Under the pieces are notes generated by a model that was not told where the DNA came from, made no database searches, and saw only the letters and a list, made by a program, of their open reading frames with translations. From positions 32,001 to 96,000 of the IMG/VR virus record IMGVR_UViG_3300012352_000355: a stretch of DNA of 64,000 nt. The stretch is one strand, 5' to 3'. Both the position numbers and the translations under genes were made by a program. This document shows, one piece after another, positions 1-34,230 of the stretch. Each line of letters begins with the position of its first letter. The first letter of the stretch is position 1. This DNA is from a virus.

Positions 1-688
1 AGAGATCAATATGCCTAAAGTAACTGTAGATGAAGGTAACTTAGTTAACGTACCAGTTAAAGTATTGACTAACGGAAAGAACTTAGGTGCACTACAATTA
101 GACTTGCGTTATGACACTGCTTACTTAGAGTTTAAGAAAGTAGAAAACACTGAGAAGATGATGAAGTGGACTTCTTACTTGAACCCTTCTAACGGAATCA
201 TCTCTTGGGGAGCTGCTGATTTGACTAACGAGAACATGCTTAATGACGGAGAGCAAGTATTCACTCTTCAATTCATTGCTAAGAAGCCACAAGACTCTTG
301 GGCTACTGCAGCTTTGTGGACAGGTGCTAAATACGTAGGAGACAAAAACTCTAAAGACATGAACATTACCCCTGCTATGGGAGTAATTGAAGTACGTAGA
401 ATCAACAAAGGAGTTGTTTCACTTAATGATTTGAATTCTATTATCACTTTTCCTAACCCTACAGAAGGTCCAGTACAAATCCAATTCAAGATCAAAGAAG
501 ATAGTGAAGTAGACGTAGCTATCTCTGATGAGGTAGGAAGACGTGTACAAACGATTCTAAGCGAAAGAATGCCTGCAGGTAAGTACAAGTATAATACAAA
601 CCTAGATCGTCTTCCTAATGGCTTCTATGTGCTTTCTGTAACAACTCAAAAAGAAATCTTACACTCCAAAATAATCGTACAAAAATGA
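1..688 (+). CDS. Cohesin-like domain protein with C-terminal T9SS (Por) sorting domain; probably 5'-truncated by the window edge
   Basis: Frame is open from the window start (GAG ATC AAT ATG11). VNVPVKV..NLGALQLDLRYDTAYLEF resembles a cohesin beta-sandwich. FPNPTEG..I.DEVGRRV..LPNGFYVLSV..SKIIVQK matches the type A T9SS CTD pattern. Confidence 0.8.
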   Translation, partial: EINMPKVTVDEGNLVNVPVKVLTNGKNLGALQLDLRYDTAYLEFKKVENTEKMMKWTSYLNPSNGIISWGAADLTNENMLNDGEQVFTLQFIAKKPQDSWATAALWTGAKYVGDKNSKDMNITPAMGVIEVRRINKGVVSLNDLNSIITFPNPTEGPVQIQFKIKEDSEVDVAISDEVGRRVQTILSERMPAGKYKYNTNLDRLPNGFYVLSVTTQKEILHSKIIVQK

Positions 689-1035
689 ACATTAAAAAAG
701 CACTTGGTTTTAGCCAAGCAGAACCAGTAGTAGTAGATCCTAAGAATAGGTTCTATTATATGCTACAACAAATGCAAGCCAATCGTTGGAAAATTACAGC
801 TATCGTATTGGGCTTGTTTACTCTAATCATTGTCGGAATCAACGCAGCAGTATTCATGGGAGCTGCTATTGGTGAAGACTGGAAAGAAATGTTGCTTATC
901 CTTTTAGGTGCATTTGTAGGTAATCTGAACAAAGTAGTAGACTACTGGTTTAACTCAGAAGATCGTGACAAGATGTTGATCCAAAAAGTGGATGAGGAAG
1001 ACGGTGAATCATTATCAAACACAACTAATCCATAA
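685..1035 (+). CDS. Small two-TM membrane protein
   Basis: Hydrophobic segments ITAIVLGLFTLIIVGINAAVFM and MLLILLGAFVGNL; ATGA overlap with upstream gene. Confidence 0.75.
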   Translation: MNIKKALGFSQAEPVVVDPKNRFYYMLQQMQANRWKITAIVLGLFTLIIVGINAAVFMGAAIGEDWKEMLLILLGAFVGNLNKVVDYWFNSEDRDKMLIQKVDEEDGESLSNTTNP

Positions 1036-1039
1036 TATC

Positions 1040-1360
1040 ATGTCAGAAGAACAAGAAGAAAGCGTAATGTCGGCTACTAAGAAAGCTATCATTGGCGCAG
1101 TCACCACTGCTGTAACTGCAGGAGGTGCATGGTTCGCTACTCACTTTGGTGGTGGCGAAGAACCTAAAGAAGAAGCTAAAACAGAACAGAGTGCTGCTCC
1201 TGTTATTAACTTGAATCTAGAGAACAACAACACTAACCAGCAGAAACAATCTTCAGGTGGAACTACTACTATCATCAAAGAAAGAACAGTAGAGAAACCT
1301 GCAGCTCAACCTGCTGCTCCTGCAACCAAACCACAAGAGGAGGAATCTGATCCATGGTAA
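1040..1360 (+). CDS. Small membrane-anchored protein with Asn/Gln/Pro-rich tail
   Basis: Likely start ATG1040 (MSEEQ...) after the upstream stop; hydrophobic AIIGAVTTAVTAGGAWF; low-complexity NNNTNQQKQ and PAAQPAAP. Confidence 0.7.
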   Translation: MSEEQEESVMSATKKAIIGAVTTAVTAGGAWFATHFGGGEEPKEEAKTEQSAAPVINLNLENNNTNQQKQSSGGTTTIIKERTVEKPAAQPAAPATKPQEEESDPW

Positions 1361-1950
1361 AAACCTGTAATATATGTTTTGTAGAAAAGACTTTAGATGA
1401 TTTTTATAAATCTAAGTCTGGTAGAGACGGTCTGGAGTCTTTTTGTAAATTATGCAAAAGAGAGAAGTCTAGGAAAACTTATTTAGACAACAGAGAATAT
1501 AGACTACTACAAAGCAAATCATATTACTACTCTAATCACGAAAAACAAAAGGAAGTAAAAAGTAATTGGAAGAAGAATAATCCAGACTTAAACCGAGCAA
1601 TTAATAATGCCTGGGAAAGAAATAAGAGGAAGGAAGATAAATTCTGGGCTTGTAAAAAGGCACTAAGAACAAGATTTCTAGGAGCTTTGTCTGGAAGGGT
1701 GAAATCCGACTCTACTCTAAAACTAGTGGGACTACCTTCTTGGGACACATTAAAATTCTATCTGGAAACTCTTTGGTCTGAAAATATGTGTTGGAGTAAC
1801 TATGGTTATGGCGAAGGATGTTGGGTAATAGATCATATTATCCCACTAGCCTCTGCTTCTAGTTTAGAGGAATTGGAAAAACTTCAACACTATACTAACT
1901 TACAGCCTTTGTGGTGGAGGGATAATTTAATAAAAGGAACAAGTATATGA
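1354..1950 (+). CDS. HNH / endonuclease VII-like homing endonuclease
   Basis: N-terminal CxxC...CxxC; C-terminal W.IDHIIPLAS...HYTNLQPLW..DN..KG beta-beta-alpha-Me motif. Confidence 0.85.
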   Translation: MVKTCNICFVEKTLDDFYKSKSGRDGLESFCKLCKREKSRKTYLDNREYRLLQSKSYYYSNHEKQKEVKSNWKKNNPDLNRAINNAWERNKRKEDKFWACKKALRTRFLGALSGRVKSDSTLKLVGLPSWDTLKFYLETLWSENMCWSNYGYGEGCWVIDHIIPLASASSLEELEKLQHYTNLQPLWWRDNLIKGTSI

Positions 1951-2651
1951 AGACAGTAAAAAAATGGTTTAACAAGTTCATGGCTCTTGTAGTCTTGACC
2001 TTGGCAGGTTGTGGTTCTATGAAGACTACTACCGAAGAAGATAAAGTGGAGGTGAAAGACATCTCCACTGTATCTAATTATAGTGATTCTATTAAAAAAA
2101 CAGTACAAGTGGTAAGCGTAGATATGACCAAGGTACTTGCTCTTTATCCTGCTCTTCAGGAAAAGAACGTAGGTCTTGGATTTGCAGAATCTGTTTTGGA
2201 TTATTTGGATGAAACAAACAGATTTATATTTACGGAAGAAAAATCAGAGATCAAAGAAAGAATGGTCACTCAATTCAAAGCATCAAAGAAAGGCGTATTC
2301 GATGAACCAATTGATGGGAAAGGTAAGATTAAGCCTGCTCACTACTTTGTGTATGTTACTGTGGCTGATTTTGCTGTTGATGAAGACGAGCAAGTTGATG
2401 GCCTTAAGTCAAAAGTTGTTGTCACTACCTTCATACGTTTACAAGTTCGCTTTGTGGACGCTAAGACAGGTCAGATCTATATTGGATCTGGCGAAGGAGA
2501 GTCGACTAAGACTGGTGAATCATTCTTAAAATCTTTAGATGATATGAAGTTCTCTCAAAGCACAGTAGGTAAAGCTACACGTAAATCTTTGGAGACAGCT
2601 TGTACTAATGTGATTCAAAATCTCATTAAGTCAGGTGTATTTAAAAACTAA
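1947..2651 (+). CDS. CsgG/HfaB-like outer-membrane lipoprotein
   Basis: Lipobox LAGC. LGFAESVLDYLDETNRF.F.E, V.V.DF, and IRLQVRFVDAKTGQIYIGSGEG resemble the CsgG family. Confidence 0.75.
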   Translation: MKTVKKWFNKFMALVVLTLAGCGSMKTTTEEDKVEVKDISTVSNYSDSIKKTVQVVSVDMTKVLALYPALQEKNVGLGFAESVLDYLDETNRFIFTEEKSEIKERMVTQFKASKKGVFDEPIDGKGKIKPAHYFVYVTVADFAVDEDEQVDGLKSKVVVTTFIRLQVRFVDAKTGQIYIGSGEGESTKTGESFLKSLDDMKFSQSTVGKATRKSLETACTNVIQNLIKSGVFKN

Positions 2652-4119
2652 AATACTAATACTATTTATGATAGCTCTGTCTCTTCGGGGGCAGAGCTTT
2701 ATTTATTCGTACACAGATCCTTGTACTCAGGAGTTAAAGTTTATTAACGCAGACATGTCTAGTCCTATAGTAATTGCTTACTATGGACAGGTTAAGACTT
2801 TCTCCTACACAGAGTTACAAGATGGTACGTTTGATAATTGGATAAATAGTGTATATTTGAAGTATCAAAGTACATCACCCTGTCAAGGAGTTGGAGTAAC
2901 AACTACTACAACTACAACAACGAATACTACCCTAAACATTGTAAGCAATGTTATGAACCTAGGGGCTATTTCAAATGTTGGTAGTGTAAATGTAGATGTA
3001 GGCTCTAGCACCTCTTCAGGAACAAACATAGGAACAACAAAAACCAATAATAACAATGACAATCGAACTAGCTCTCGGAATCGTACTAGCAGTAGCTCTA
3101 GTCGTTCTGGTTCTTCTGGCAGCTCGTCAGGAGAAGGTGGACAATCAAGTGGTGGAGGAAACTCCTCAGAGACCCCAGGAACCTCAAGTGGAAACTCTCC
3201 AGACCCCAATCCAGGAAGCAGCGGAGAAGGTAATGGAGGAAGCAGTGGCTCCAGCTCCAGTTCCAGCTCCAGTAGTAGTGGAGGAAACTCCAGTGGTAGT
3301 GGAAGTAGTGGAAGTAGTAGCGGAAGCTCCCAAGGTGGAGGCGGAAGTGGTGGTAAAACCGAAGAAAAAACGGAAGTACAAACCGAGGAACCCACAGAAC
3401 AAAAAGTAGAGGAAACTAAAACTGAGACTCAAAAATCTCAGTCTTCTGGTACTGCAAAAGCTGCAGGAAAAGCTAAAGCCGAAGTTGCTAAGCCTGCGAT
3501 CTTAGTAACTGGTGATTTAGTTGGTATTCAGACTAAGTCTGATGGAGCACAAGATGCAAGAGGTACTGCCTCTTTTACTAGAGTAAAGGGAGACGGTACT
3601 TCTTCTCTTGGGTTTTCAGCCGACTACATGGTTAACGCTAGGATAGGAAATATCTCTTGCGTACGCTCTTGGATAGGAGCAAACAAAAAAGGAAACAAAC
3701 ACATTAGTGTTGTATCTGATGGACTTAGCATAATGCCTAAGTCAATGTCAAACACTCTTCTATTTGTAAGAGTTAATTCAGTTAAAAACTTTACAGCTCT
3801 CTACGGAGCAGCGGGAACTTACGGTAAACTATTTGGAGAAGAAATGATTTCTACTATTGCTATCGGAGGTTTTATGTACAAAGGTAAACTTACTAAAAGT
3901 ATAGATGCTACAATTATTGCAGCTGGTATCTACTCTCCGTACTCTAAGTATTACACAGAATCTATATTTGAGGCTAAGCCTATTGTGATTCCTTTCTTTA
4001 ACTTTACATACAGAATGACCAAGACTTTTGGCTTAGGTATTACTGGAGGAGGAACATATGTAGCAGGACAGGATATATTAAACTTTCAACTATTGATGGG
4101 AGCTAAGTTATTAATATGA
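2635..4119 (+). CDS. Exported protein: N-terminal domain, Ser/Gly-rich linker, C-terminal predicted beta-barrel
   Basis: Signal peptide ending LRG-Q; about 120-aa S/G linker; alternating amphipathic strands in the last ~200 aa (PFFNFTYRM, FGLGITGGG, FQLLMGAKLLI). Confidence 0.7.
   Translation: MYLKTKILILFMIALSLRGQSFIYSYTDPCTQELKFINADMSSPIVIAYYGQVKTFSYTELQDGTFDNWINSVYLKYQSTSPCQGVGVTTTTTTTTNTTLNIVSNVMNLGAISNVGSVNVDVGSSTSSGTNIGTTKTNNNNDNRTSSRNRTSSSSSRSGSSGSSSGEGGQSSGGGNSSETPGTSSGNSPDPNPGSSGEGNGGSSGSSSSSSSSSSGGNSSGSGSSGSSSGSSQGGGGSGGKTEEKTEVQTEEPTEQKVEETKTETQKSQSSGTAKAAGKAKAEVAKPAILVTGDLVGIQTKSDGAQDARGTASFTRVKGDGTSSLGFSADYMVNARIGNISCVRSWIGANKKGNKHISVVSDGLSIMPKSMSNTLLFVRVNSVKNFTALYGAAGTYGKLFGEEMISTIAIGGFMYKGKLTKSIDATIIAAGIYSPYSKYYTESIFEAKPIVIPFFNFTYRMTKTFGLGITGGGTYVAGQDILNFQLLMGAKLLI
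3056..3409 (+). CDS. Candidate nested (overprinted) single-pass membrane protein in the +1 frame
   Basis: A-rich leader AAAACCAATAATAACA-ATG; about 20-aa uninterrupted hydrophobic N-terminus; E/P/V-rich stalk; basic tail KPKKKRKYKPR; boundaries coincide with the host-frame low-complexity region. Confidence 0.5.
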   Translation: MTIELALGIVLAVALVVLVLLAARQEKVDNQVVEETPQRPQEPQVETLQTPIQEAAEKVMEEAVAPAPVPAPVVVEETPVVVEVVEVVAEAPKVEAEVVVKPKKKRKYKPRNPQNKK

Positions 4120-5163: not shown

Positions 5164-5610
5164 ATGAAAAAACTATTTATACTTTCCGCTTTAGTCACTA
5201 TGATGACTTCTCTGAGTGCTCAATGCTATAAAGTTGACACTGTAACATCAATTGCTTCTGTAACAGAAATAGGAGGAAGACCTATAATCTTTGGAGCACA
5301 AACAACTCTAGAAGAGATTGCCTCCTCAAAGTACCAATTATGTAATGAGGGCAGTCCTATTTCAGGAACAATCAAATCCATTGCTATGCCTGAAGAACTC
5401 TTAAATATCGTAGGGTTACAGTTTCTCAAGAGAGACTATATTGTAGTCACTGAGATAAACTTAAATGGAGTAACTGTTCTTGGAGAGGCTAAAAAGACTG
5501 TCTATGTTAATGCTATGTTTGTTTCTGTAGAAGGTATTCCTCATAACAGAAAAGCTTATTCTAAGGCATTGGAGAAGTCTTTCAAGAATGGGTTTGAGAA
5601 TTTGAAATAG
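5164..5610 (+). CDS. Exported protein, possibly a distant CsgG/TolB-N-like fold
   Basis: Signal peptide LSA-Q; C-terminal helix RKAYSKALEKSF parallels STVGKATRKSLE of the CsgG-like gene. Confidence 0.65.
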   Translation: MKKLFILSALVTMMTSLSAQCYKVDTVTSIASVTEIGGRPIIFGAQTTLEEIASSKYQLCNEGSPISGTIKSIAMPEELLNIVGLQFLKRDYIVVTEINLNGVTVLGEAKKTVYVNAMFVSVEGIPHNRKAYSKALEKSFKNGFENLK

Positions 5611-5619
5611 TTTTCTTTC

Positions 5620-5905
5620 CTTCTCATTCTGAGAAGTAGTCTATTTTGACTTTCTATTCTAACTTATATTGCAGCAGTTTTTAACCAAATAGCTCTCGGA
5701 GCTAAGTCTCTGTTCTGTCCACTTATTGCCTACGGTCTATTACTTGTAGGTCAGAGCACTGCAAACTTCATTAGAACATTTTGACACTATCGGAGAAACC
5801 TCTTTTCACCTCTGAGGGCTACTCATACTATCCAACTTCTAGCAGATTACTTTTTAATCCTCGTCTGCGAACATTAAGAAATGGTGTCGGGGGATCAAAG
5901 ATAAA
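5620..5905. ncRNA. Candidate structured non-coding RNA
   Basis: About 350-nt stretch without an ORF of 60 aa or more, with several nested inverted repeats; minus-strand TATCTTTG -7 element at 5903-5896. Confidence 0.3.
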
Positions 5906-5964
5906 GCGACTTACGTGTAAGTAGATGTCTCTGTGGAAAATTTGTGAAATAAAAGACAGCTAGA

Positions 5965-31758: not shown

Positions 31759-34230
31759 ATGTTAAGATACTCACTGTATAAGAAATTTGTAAACGGGGGT
31801 GGAGTAGATCCTGAGGTTGAAAAAATCCAACCAAAAGGAATTACTGCTCCTATACCTACTATGGAAGAGTACCTGTCTAACAATCAGGAATTTAGCAATA
31901 CAAGTTCTTATCAAGATGCCTTTCAAATTCCTAACTTATCTCTAACAGGATTTAAGACCTCAGACTCTCCTGAAGGTACGGTAACTGATAAGCAAAAATC
32001 ATATAAGCCAGGTACATTTAAAGATGAAGGTAGCTTGCCTACTTTTACTTCTATACTATCTCCGCTTAATCCTTTTGACGTAAATCAAAAAACTCCTGAA
32101 GTAGAACAAGGTCCTTTGTCTGAAGAAGAAGCTACGATGAGAGGTATCCAAACTTCTCCTATTACTTCCACTCCAAAAGAGCAACCTAGTTTCTGGCAAC
32201 AGAATAGTTCTGCATTAGCAACTTTAGGTTTATTGGGAGTTGACTCAGGGTTTGGATATAATGAAGATCTAAAGAATCAGCAAAAATTAAACGAGTCAAT
32301 ACAACAAAGAAAATCTAAGCCTGAGTACTCCTACAATTATATGTATGGTCCCACAACAGGTGGAGGTACAGAATTTCAACCTACAATAAAAGCAGAAATG
32401 GGTGCAAAAATAAACAAACGTTATGCTAGTGAAGGCATGAACGATGTAGAAATTGAAGGTGGAGAATTTATCCAACTTCCTAATCTAGATACTGAAATGG
32501 CTGAAGGGCCTTCTCACGAGAATGGAGGTATTCCTACAAACTTGCCTAATGAGACTCGTGTCTATTCTAACAATTTAAAGCCAGAAGGATCTAAGAAAAC
32601 TTTTGCACAGATCGCTAAAAACTACGATATCACTTCATATAAGAAAACTTTAGATAATCCCTTTGCTAAACAAGTAGATAAGGATACTGCAAGTATAATG
32701 ATGAAGAGAAACCAGAAAATTCTGGATGATTTGTTTGAAGATCAACAGATGATGAATGGTAACTCTAATGGAGAACTAGAAGCAAAGAGAGGAGCTAGTA
32801 TTAACAACCCAGGATTTAAAGCTCTTCCAGGTTACGTACAAGCTAAGATTACTGCTAACATGGCAGAGGGAGCTAAATATAAAATTCCACAGGGAGTAAC
32901 AGTTAAGCAAGCAGGTGATCCTTCGATTCAGGTAGGTGATTACGTTATGGGCGCTAATAATAAAGTCCAGAAAGTCACTGCTGCAAACAAGAAGACTACT
33001 TTAGGAGAATACAATAAAGGCTATGATGATTTGTCTTCTACGTTAAGTAGACCTGAATTTGACAAAGTTAAGGAGGCTATGTACACTAAGTACAAAGAAA
33101 AGAATCCTAGTACTACTGTATCCAAAGATCAGTTTATTAAAAACTTCATGGATGCTCAGAAGCAGATCTATACTATTAGGGAAGCTGCTAAAAATAATCC
33201 AAACCTTGATATTAAGACTGAAGACTTAGACAGAACTGCTGGTGGTATGAAGAATAAGGTTTATAATCAAATTGCAAAGCAATTAGGTTTTAATCCTTTG
33301 ACTGAAGATCAAACAAAAATGTTTCAACAGTCTTACTTGGATCTTGCAGATCTCCAGAATAATCCTGAATTTAAAGAAACTCTGTCTGACTTTGATCTGA
33401 CTCCTACAGGAATGACAGATGACGTATATCTAGGAAAACCAATTTCAAAAGCAGATGCAATCTTCGGTAACACTACTATAGGACAAGCAGTAAGAGCAAA
33501 AAGTAGAAGTGACGCTCAGGACTATACTTACGAAGATGTTCCCCTAGAGACAAAAGACATTGAGTTTAATCAACCAGGAACTGCACCAAGGGGAACTTAT
33601 ACTCCTGGAAAGTTTCCTTTGTATCAAGCTATTCCTGAAGCAATGGGACTTGCTCAATCACAACAAATTTATCCTTATGCTATTCCTGAAATAGATGCCC
33701 CTTATCTTCGTCCTCAAACTTTGAATATTCAAAGTGAGTTACAAAACATAGATAACATGGGTACAGCAGCTATCCGATCTGGTGCAGATCCTTTAGATGT
33801 TTATATTGCAGGAATTGATGCTAAACAAAAAGCTTTTCAAACTAAACAAAACTATGATGCAGAAGGTAGGTCTAGAGCAGATATAGCAAATGCACAGGCT
33901 TCCTTTAGTGCAGATCAGTTCAATGCTCAAGCATTTGATCGTGTATACAATAACCTAGTAGGTCAAGCAAGAGATGCTCAGTCTGCAGAAAAACAAGCAT
34001 CTATTGCAAACATGATAACTAAGAAAGGTTTGTTTGATCAGAGTGAATCTAGAAAAGCTGCATTTATTAATAACCTTGTTCCTTCATTTAACACTACCTC
34101 AAAGGGTCAGATGGATGTGGCAGAAGAACAGTTGCCATTTTATTTTAATGCTTTCAACAACTATGTAGATGCTGAAGACACTAAAAAGAAAACAGCTAAA
34201 AAAGGAATGTATAAAAAACCTAAATATTAA
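31759..34230 (+). CDS. Virion cargo/ejection protein 1
   Basis: VEIEGGE and GPSHENGGIP motifs typical of crAss-like cargo proteins; Gln/Ala-rich C-terminal coiled coil. Confidence 0.7.
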   Translation: MLRYSLYKKFVNGGGVDPEVEKIQPKGITAPIPTMEEYLSNNQEFSNTSSYQDAFQIPNLSLTGFKTSDSPEGTVTDKQKSYKPGTFKDEGSLPTFTSILSPLNPFDVNQKTPEVEQGPLSEEEATMRGIQTSPITSTPKEQPSFWQQNSSALATLGLLGVDSGFGYNEDLKNQQKLNESIQQRKSKPEYSYNYMYGPTTGGGTEFQPTIKAEMGAKINKRYASEGMNDVEIEGGEFIQLPNLDTEMAEGPSHENGGIPTNLPNETRVYSNNLKPEGSKKTFAQIAKNYDITSYKKTLDNPFAKQVDKDTASIMMKRNQKILDDLFEDQQMMNGNSNGELEAKRGASINNPGFKALPGYVQAKITANMAEGAKYKIPQGVTVKQAGDPSIQVGDYVMGANNKVQKVTAANKKTTLGEYNKGYDDLSSTLSRPEFDKVKEAMYTKYKEKNPSTTVSKDQFIKNFMDAQKQIYTIREAAKNNPNLDIKTEDLDRTAGGMKNKVYNQIAKQLGFNPLTEDQTKMFQQSYLDLADLQNNPEFKETLSDFDLTPTGMTDDVYLGKPISKADAIFGNTTIGQAVRAKSRSDAQDYTYEDVPLETKDIEFNQPGTAPRGTYTPGKFPLYQAIPEAMGLAQSQQIYPYAIPEIDAPYLRPQTLNIQSELQNIDNMGTAAIRSGADPLDVYIAGIDAKQKAFQTKQNYDAEGRSRADIANAQASFSADQFNAQAFDRVYNNLVGQARDAQSAEKQASIANMITKKGLFDQSESRKAAFINNLVPSFNTTSKGQMDVAEEQLPFYFNAFNNYVDAEDTKKKTAKKGMYKKPKY

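Follow-up and report, generated by a model that had tools for sequence, protein, structure and literature searches.

Does a long run of Ser and Gly codons in a phage gene hold a second gene in another reading frame, or does it only read as one? This question is raised by a 64,000-nucleotide stretch of viral DNA (the window; positions 32,001 to 96,000 of the 111-kb IMG/VR virus record IMGVR_UViG_3300012352_000355), in which the gene 2635..4119 on the plus strand, here called the host gene, contains within its Ser/Gly/Asn/Thr linker of 125 residues a complete open reading frame (ORF) in the +1 frame at 3056..3409. An earlier note made from the sequence alone had proposed dual coding at this place, with the caveat that Ser/Gly runs naturally give such a +1 reading. 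The nested ORF is concluded here to be a genuine overprinted protein-coding gene for a small bitopic membrane protein, with a probability of about 0.85, and dual coding is borne out by host synonymous sites frozen in four independent clades, by equal conservation of the two frames and by a free-standing copy of the gene in a related phage.

The nested frame and the selection acting on it

With a start (ATG) and a stop (TAG) of its own, the nested ORF comprises 117 codons and lies wholly within the host gene on the same strand, which is the layout of an embedded gene. Its product runs in the order MTIE, LALGIVLAVALVVLVLLAA, RQEK, an E/P/V/A-rich middle and KPKKKRKYKPRNPQNKK, and ORF and translation agree with the Met, transmembrane (TM) helix, acidic Pro/Val region and basic tail that had been described before. 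The TM helix of 19 residues (residues 5-23) and the juxtamembrane R-Q-E-K are encoded at 3068..3136 (maximum Kyte-Doolittle 19-mer value, KD19, of 3.19), the central motif I-Q-E-A-A-E-K-V-M-E-E-A-V-A at 3209..3250, and the basic C-terminal tail with the stop codon at 3356..3409. The window's protein has no Cys, hence no lipobox, and its family is present in one copy in the window's genome and nowhere else in it. The linker DNA has a GC content of 51% as compared to about 36%, and the uncommon host-frame codons remarked on previously are all raised over genome-wide usage: TCC makes up 16% of the Ser codons versus 3%, AGC 24% versus 7% (binomial P 1e-7 for both together), CGA and CGG 25% each versus 1-2%, and ACC 50% versus 10%, with an overall skew towards TCC, AGC, CGA, CGG, ACC and CCC.

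Scanning of IMG/VR with the host gene revealed 69 loci, of which 55 are full-length and 48 distinct, falling into ten clades at 75% identity and reaching down to 52%. The host frame is open across the linker in all 55 full-length homologues, with every change in linker length a multiple of three, and the alignment proposed in the earlier note showed an open +1 frame with an ATG and a hydrophobic helix at the linker start, behind a Lys/Asn-rich (A-rich) patch, in 48/48 distinct homologues. The size of the nested ORF varies from 31 to 117 aa across clades. In five clades, a single host Val splits the +1 frame into ORF A, with Met, a TM segment and then ...MEEIHQKIKAGL..., and ORF B, which starts with ATG or GTG right after the ORF A stop and has a TM-like stretch and a Lys-rich tail of its own. 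The two are fused in the window's clade, where the ATG within K-V-M-E-E of the central motif is homologous to the ORF B start of the other clades. ORF B lies at codons ~166-207 of the L040 host gene and occurs also in L046, L049, L050, L048, L036 and L052-L057. A scan of metagenome contigs with alignment A1 gave six loci, all of the overlapped form, and no homologue of the nested protein was found in cultured phages. The most distant homologue of the host gene, with 28% identity in the C-domain and within the same gene module, belongs to the cultured Flavobacterium phage immuto, in whose polar linker the +1 frame is open for 86 codons with an ATG, but with a hydrophilic product; the helix is hence not automatic.

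Selection on the overlap is apparent from the distribution of changes over host codon positions. In the N- and C-domains, diversity at positions 1, 2 and 3 amounts to 0.04-0.11, 0.01-0.08 and 0.21-0.37, respectively, the pattern of DNA read in one frame, and under the nested ORF the diversity at position 3 is down to 0.06-0.12 with that at positions 1 and 2 going up. The synonymous-site check suggested earlier was carried out on host four-fold degenerate sites in columns with a conserved residue, comparing the ORF with its flanks by Fisher's test, and it revealed such sites to be frozen under the nested ORF in four clades. In the window's clade (20 sequences), 11/11 sites are invariant in the ATG and TM part and 24/26 over the whole ORF, as against 43/122 in the flanks (P 2.5e-5 and 5e-8). 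The 32-codon ORF of the L034 clade has 11/12 invariant sites versus 31/106 in its flanks (P 3.9e-5), and ORF A has 21/22 versus 87/127 in the L040 clade (P 0.005) and 17/19 versus 73/120 in the L046 clade (P 0.011). Combination of seven clades, three null ones included, gives P 2e-8. When pair-specific expectations are used, the ratio of observed to expected synonymous changes falls to 0.05-0.2 under the nested ORF, and in the L034, L040 and L046 clades this dip begins and ends at the borders of the ORF.

Within the ORF of the window's clade the signal follows the parts of the protein. The ratio is 0.05-0.09 in the TM region and 0.06-0.12 in the central motif, which forms a second dip (Fisher P 0.003-0.007), and in the basic tail 6/6 host four-fold sites are invariant (P 0.003). 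The region just 3' of the nested stop has a moderately lowered synonymous diversity as well, so that the signal of the tail is less clean than that of the helix or the central motif. Neither the L040 nor the L046 clade shows such constraint in ORF B (P about 0.5), and the L049 clade shows a marginal one (P 0.02); ORF B acts as an internal by-product control; in L040/L046-type clades it is probably a by-product itself, though part of a functional ORF in the window's clade. Where constraint is seen, the two frames are conserved to about the same degree, with a mean BLOSUM score of 3.9-4.2 in the nested frame versus 1.5-2.9 in the +1 frame of the control domains, and one column with Arg, Asn, Gly or Ser in the host frame reads as Val or Ile in the nested frame. 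Thus, both reading frames are maintained by selection.

A free-standing copy and the weighing of alternatives

A protein database search with the nested product retrieved 27 proteins, most of them on short contigs with a truncated host gene. Among them are the diverged forms P0025, P0021, P0024, P0029 and P0030, which share M1, E4, L5, G8, L11, L15, L18, A22, R24 and Q25, the last nine of these being invariant across nested and standalone forms. The AAEKVMEEA part of the central motif is kept in P0025, P0021 and P0024, and the 17-residue tail is identical (17/17) in the standalone proteins. A scan of metagenome contigs with P0030 found nothing.

P0025 is encoded by a standalone gene of 95 codons on the 81.5-kb IMG/VR contig L071 (L071:2501-2788), a record in which the host gene is absent. 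Its frame alone is open at this locus (chance P 4e-4), the five other frames having 4-17 stops, with 10 in the former host frame. No N-domain lies upstream of it; a stop is located 9 codons before the ATG, and the gene begins 16 nt after the preceding one, ~1.6 kb downstream of the endolysin gene with four genes between, in the same variable slot. The phage is close to that of the window, with an endolysin 87% identical and downstream genes 71-97% identical in an order kept up to terminase and portal. In a blastn comparison with the window, homology is limited to 3048-3250, where the first block ends at the central motif, and 3350-3408, and resumes only at 5584, the shared DNA being the nested ORF from 8 nt before the ATG to the stop. 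Relative to L103, a closer phage with the overlapped form and flanks 92.3% and 94.6% identical to those of L071, two blocks are missing from L071, one with the stalk gene, the lipoprotein gene and the host N-domain, the other with the host C-domain, the lectin gene and a 148-aa gene, and the nested ORF marks the end of each. At 74-90%, the ORF that was retained has diverged further than these flanks. The standalone DNA is diverged to 69-74%, with 88% identity over the tail, yet the reading frame and the protein motifs are kept. Its GC content is 35%, which is genome-typical, as compared to 51% in the nested form, and its helix contains Phe, Tyr and Cys, the single Cys of P0025 (LIIC-A) not being conserved.

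The slot has further features of its own. Immediately upstream of this small-gene slot, G001 as well as some of the phages that have the envelope module carry a cargo block (L071:1135-2222 and L103:3040-4127), made up of a tandem pair of DUF2589 genes, a Zn-ribbon ORF and a TM and coiled-coil gene of 86 aa. On its right the slot has a fixed border, an ORF-free stretch after the gene 5164-5610 (window 5584-5925; L071:2800-3400) that is conserved among phages; its overall identity to G001 is 74%, nearly complete over long runs, and the region is 94.6% identical between G001 and L103.

How much of the nested frame could be expected from composition alone is decided by simple codon mechanics. The +1 stops TAA, TAG and TGA require T at host codon position 2, i.e. 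F, L, I, M or V, and the linker holds a single such residue, a Val read as TAC in +1. Since the linker is nearly without T at this position, the +1 frame is open whatever codons are used, and the ORF borders are the first hydrophobic host residues on either side, the Ile of N-I-G upstream and the Val of K-V-E downstream. The match of low-complexity and ORF borders that the earlier note had pointed out is therefore real, with a mechanical cause, the position-2 T of these two codons. The codon shuffling it had called for showed that an open frame, and often a TM-like stretch too, arises by chance: 5,000 of 5,000 synonymous permutations keep the 125-codon open stretch and 59% keep the ATG ORF, so that openness and ATG in the window are no more than chance. 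When synonymous codons are drawn from each phage's own usage, 75-93% of trials in the window's clade and 12-22% in three other clades give an ORF that starts with ATG and has a TM-like segment (KD19 of 1.6 or more). A hydrophobicity above the observed value comes up in 0.05-8% of trials for most lineages, and in Asn-rich ones the observed value is unremarkable. The caveat about Ser/Gly runs was thus both justified and important. No comparable linker that could provide an empirical null was found elsewhere in the window.

These results are the substance of the view that the ORF is an untranslated compositional by-product of a Ser/Gly/Asn linker written in T- and C-ending codons, from which the TM-like and basic parts would follow. 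The same view draws on two antisense ORFs of 170 and 82 aa over the same DNA (2883-3395 and 3184-3432), on ORF B, which is TM-like but unconstrained, and on the immuto linker, whose +1 frame is open too. The antisense ORFs were rejected as genes, all antisense frames of the standalone homologue carrying 4-8 stops. What a by-product leaves unexplained are the frozen four-fold sites of four clades, the inverted codon-position pattern, the hydrophilic product of the immuto +1 frame and, above all, a standalone copy with one open frame whose homology stops at the ORF ends; it is largely refuted by these observations and very unlikely. Constraint could also arise at the nucleotide level, from a folded RNA, from a promoter or regulatory site inside the gene, or from a patch of the linker homogenised by recombination. 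This would suit a synonymous dip in the N-domain that coincides with promoter-like words and no ORF, the lowered diversity just 3' of the nested stop, and a strong RNA hairpin at 3260-3319 (-25 kcal/mol, z -6.8), in which Ser codons (AGC TCC AGT...) pair with Gly/Ser codons (GGA GGA...AGT GGT). That hairpin, however, sits in an unconstrained part of the nested ORF and is probably a side effect of repeat composition, whereas the most constrained part, the start and the TM region, is the least structured RNA. Moreover, positions 1 and 2 vary where position 3 is fixed, the changes are conservative in the +1 frame, and the standalone copy keeps frame and protein motifs at 69-74% DNA identity, all of which makes a nucleotide-level element a slightly poorer candidate still than a by-product.

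The least probable alternative, which was rejected, is a programmed +1/-2 frameshift giving an isoform with the signal peptide, the N-domain, a TM anchor and a cytoplasmic tail. Its architecture would be sensible for a type I membrane protein, and an A-rich tract does precede the ORF, but there are only 8 open +1 codons ahead of the ATG, and no A run is longer than 5. The presence of the ATG in every distinct homologue, and a standalone gene that follows closely on its neighbour with an upstream stop and without the N-domain, likewise speak for initiation at the ORF's own start.

Against the nested ORF as a gene stand several points, beginning with the resampling frequencies in the window's clade, because of which hydrophobicity alone is weak evidence. 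No four-fold constraint is found in the L021 clade (7/21 invariant) or in ORF A of the L049 clade, nor in the L018 clade, whose sequences are too closely related for an informative test. An OLGenie-like dNN/dNS ratio over five alternative frames did not discriminate, with 0.60 for the +1 frame versus 0.51-0.59 in the control domains; it was dropped, and tests on host synonymous sites were used instead. The standalone form was inspected at the DNA level at one locus, L071, and translation of the nested frame in its overlapped context is something we infer. No family, fold or experimental analogue pointing to a function emerged from Pfam, PHROGs or the ESM Atlas: for the nested and standalone proteins, the first two gave nothing above threshold (weak matches to phrog_3828, E 0.005, and DUF6550, E 0.015), and the last gave uninformative feature matches of at most 0.81 with generic long helices as structural neighbours. 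Finally, eleven related phages have neither the host gene nor a recognisable homologue of the nested protein, and the nested gene is hence dispensable or accessory.

Proposed expression, topology and origin

The nested gene is preceded by a putative translation-initiation leader (3031..3055, plus strand), A-rich and unstructured, which in the host frame encodes T-T-K-T-N-N-N-N. As already remarked in the earlier note, it resembles the leaders of other genes here, and indeed exceeds them: A makes up 70% of the 20 nt before the ATG (-20..-1) versus a mean of 47% for 31 long ORFs of the window, with A at -3, and the last 8 nt are common to the standalone gene. The 30 nt upstream of the start are unpaired, and the minimum free energy (MFE) of -30..+30 is -3 kcal/mol as against -14 to -25 for other 60-mers of the linker. 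Bacteroidota ribosomes ignore the Shine-Dalgarno sequence and favour unstructured, A-rich starts with A at -3 (PMC6847099), and the nested start fits these initiation rules, as does the standalone start. Initiation would then be internal, at the gene's own ATG and independent of host-gene translation.

About 200 nt upstream of this ATG, inside the host N-domain, lies a candidate internal promoter (2830..2859, plus strand), consisting of TTTG at 2830-2833, an 18-nt spacer and TATATTTG at 2852-2859. This word pair, TTTG-N18-TATATTTG, is of the Bacteroidetes promoter type. In the region 2826-2859, a 27-nt block around these words, TGGATAAATAGTGTATATTTGAAGTAT, is invariant at all synonymous sites in 22/22 clade sequences, and this accounts for the fall of synonymous diversity to 0.00 in the N-domain. 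In other clades, TAnnTTTG is frequently found 26 nt further upstream in its place (GGT-ACN-TTT-GA). The element may be a promoter that gives the nested gene a transcript of its own. In RNA runs, just 5-7% of the words were present, as contigs of relatives, which has no bearing on expression.

By the positive-inside rule, the nested protein would adopt an N-out/C-in topology with four residues outside, one helix and a cytoplasmic part of ~90 residues made up of an acidic middle and a strongly basic tail, and from its sequence it would be anchored in the inner membrane. Since a sister phage keeps the gene after loss of the host gene, the nested protein acts independently of the host protein. The best guess at its role, with odds well below even, is that it may be a holin- or antiholin-like or other lysis-phase membrane factor.

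Regarding origin, of 34 backbone relatives, ~15 combine the host gene with the nested ORF, 11 are without both, and a single one has the standalone form. The nested ORF occurs in all ten clades, and the phylogenetic spread of the host gene is wider, including immuto; as the immuto gene lacks a nested helix, the host frame is taken to be the older one. The standalone form has derived characters of the window's clade, namely a fused A+B and the KPRNPQNKK tail, and the L071 backbone is within the range of that clade, its anchor gene being 87% identical versus 50-63% for the L034 clade. Escape of the nested gene from the overlap is more parsimonious than its capture and is preferred; it could have come about through a deletion or through recombination with an allele that was already free. 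A fuller scenario, in which the gene was born de novo by overprinting in a disordered linker and then escaped via deletion of the host gene on both sides, with relaxation of the free copy, is put forward tentatively and at somewhat less than even odds. From nested to free, a helix of A, V, L and I only becomes one containing F, Y and C. If the scenario is true, a comparison of the two forms, a before and an after provided by nature, would allow the cost of dual coding to be measured, and linkers of phage surface proteins would be cradles for new membrane proteins.

Phages without the module have a minus-strand gene of 86-97 aa in the same slot (L088:7904-8191, L090:4128-4418, L112:7890-8147). 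Its product, with a TM helix, A-(Y/R)-K-(Q/E)-E, IAEEI and a PKKKKSKPRKK tail, has the architecture of the nested protein, and hhalign of the two families gave a probability of 96% and an E of 3e-9 over only 38 columns, the helix and juxtamembrane part. By this sequence match, it is a candidate distant homologue and no more.

The host gene and known systems

The host protein consists of a signal peptide, an N-domain of ~100 aa (DPCT...SPCQG) that is a small Cys-pair domain, a Thr run, the linker and a C-terminal barrel predicted to have 12 strands. It has no match among Pfam or PHROG families. In a model of its C-terminal 222 residues, 12 antiparallel strands are formed (pLDDT 75, pTM 0.64), and in Foldseek searches against the PDB all matches are outer-membrane barrels (the TamA barrel, NanC, KdgM, PcoB and the NalP translocator), with TM-scores of only 0.4-0.55. 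The assumption that the enclosing gene encodes an outer-membrane protein is thereby supported at the level of the predicted fold. As modelled, the layout would be autotransporter-like: type Va autotransporters have a signal peptide, an N-terminal passenger, a linker and a C-terminal 12-strand barrel, but here the TM-scores are modest and no Pfam autotransporter domain was found. At window positions 2674-2707, a terminator-like hairpin, AGCTCTGTCTCTTCGGGGGCAGAGCT then TTTATTTATT (MFE -16.2, z -4.4), lies 22 nt past the stop of the lipoprotein gene and within the signal-peptide codons of the host gene, where the rare codons CGG, GGG and CTG are used; here again, one stretch of DNA may serve two purposes. 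In immuto 3-5A (L070, MW353176), a cultured Baltic Flavobacterium phage, the region 438-3615 encodes a cohesin-domain protein, a small TM 'stalk' protein, a 237-aa protein that is 41% identical to the window's lipoprotein, and the 474-aa homologue of the host gene. Experiments on the module, but not on the nested gene, could use immuto as a model.

On complete contigs, gene finders never call the nested gene, and database entries exist only where the host gene is truncated, so that annotations of freshwater Bacteroidota phages miss an entire family of phage membrane proteins. The case has built-in controls, with at least 55 nested loci, a free-standing gene in L071, an outgroup linker without the helix ORF in immuto and ORF B as a by-product, and is a possible test bed for the detection of dual coding, in which an OLGenie-like ratio failed and four-fold-site invariance worked. 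It also carries a warning: in a Ser/Gly linker, an open and TM-like +1 frame is the default, and such ORFs should be believed only after conservation tests.

The arrangement invites comparison with Rz/Rz1 of phage lambda, a likeness drawn in the earlier note, which stands as far as the layout is concerned: in both, a complete gene for a small envelope protein lies in the +1 frame of an envelope-protein gene. Spanin pairs of related phages occur in embedded, overlapped and separated arrangements (PMC6139136), a variety paralleled by the nested and standalone forms described here. The likeness does not extend to the products. Rz1 carries a lipobox Cys and is a lipoprotein of the outer membrane, whereas the nested protein has a TM anchor; Rz is an i-spanin with an N-terminal TM segment and periplasmic coiled coils, whereas the host protein has a signal peptide and a predicted beta-barrel; and spanins are paired, whereas the nested gene persists without the host gene and so is not part of an obligate pair. 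A reading as a spanin pair was therefore rejected.

A second comparison is with protein E of phiX174, which has an N-terminal TM helix and a charged or basic C-terminal part and is fully embedded in the +1 frame of the scaffold gene D. Embedded single-gene-lysis genes are known from ssRNA phages as well (PMC7693330). These genes share with the nested gene the small TM and basic design, the +1 embedding and a probable birth by overprinting, but those phages are tiny and have no holin or endolysin, whereas here a 111-kb dsDNA phage has a holin-like gene and an endolysin gene upstream, and sequence similarity is lacking. Holins and antiholins are small, with at least one TM domain and a highly charged, often basic C-terminus, and are encoded near the endolysin. 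The nested protein corresponds to this description in its size (31-117 aa across clades), its one TM helix, its charged, basic C-terminus and its slot after the endolysin, but differs in having no family match, in a separate holin-like gene preceding the endolysin, and in eleven related phages that do without it.

Like viral genes born de novo by overprinting (PMC3494269, PMC8227390), the nested gene is lineage-restricted, short, compositionally odd, accessory and written over a part that is disordered in the older frame. It bears on gene birth in disordered linkers. The documented cases come mostly from small RNA or ssDNA viruses (PMC3494269, PMC8227390), and the gene described here differs from them in having a natural un-nested copy, in which both GC content (35% versus 51%) and residues are relaxed.

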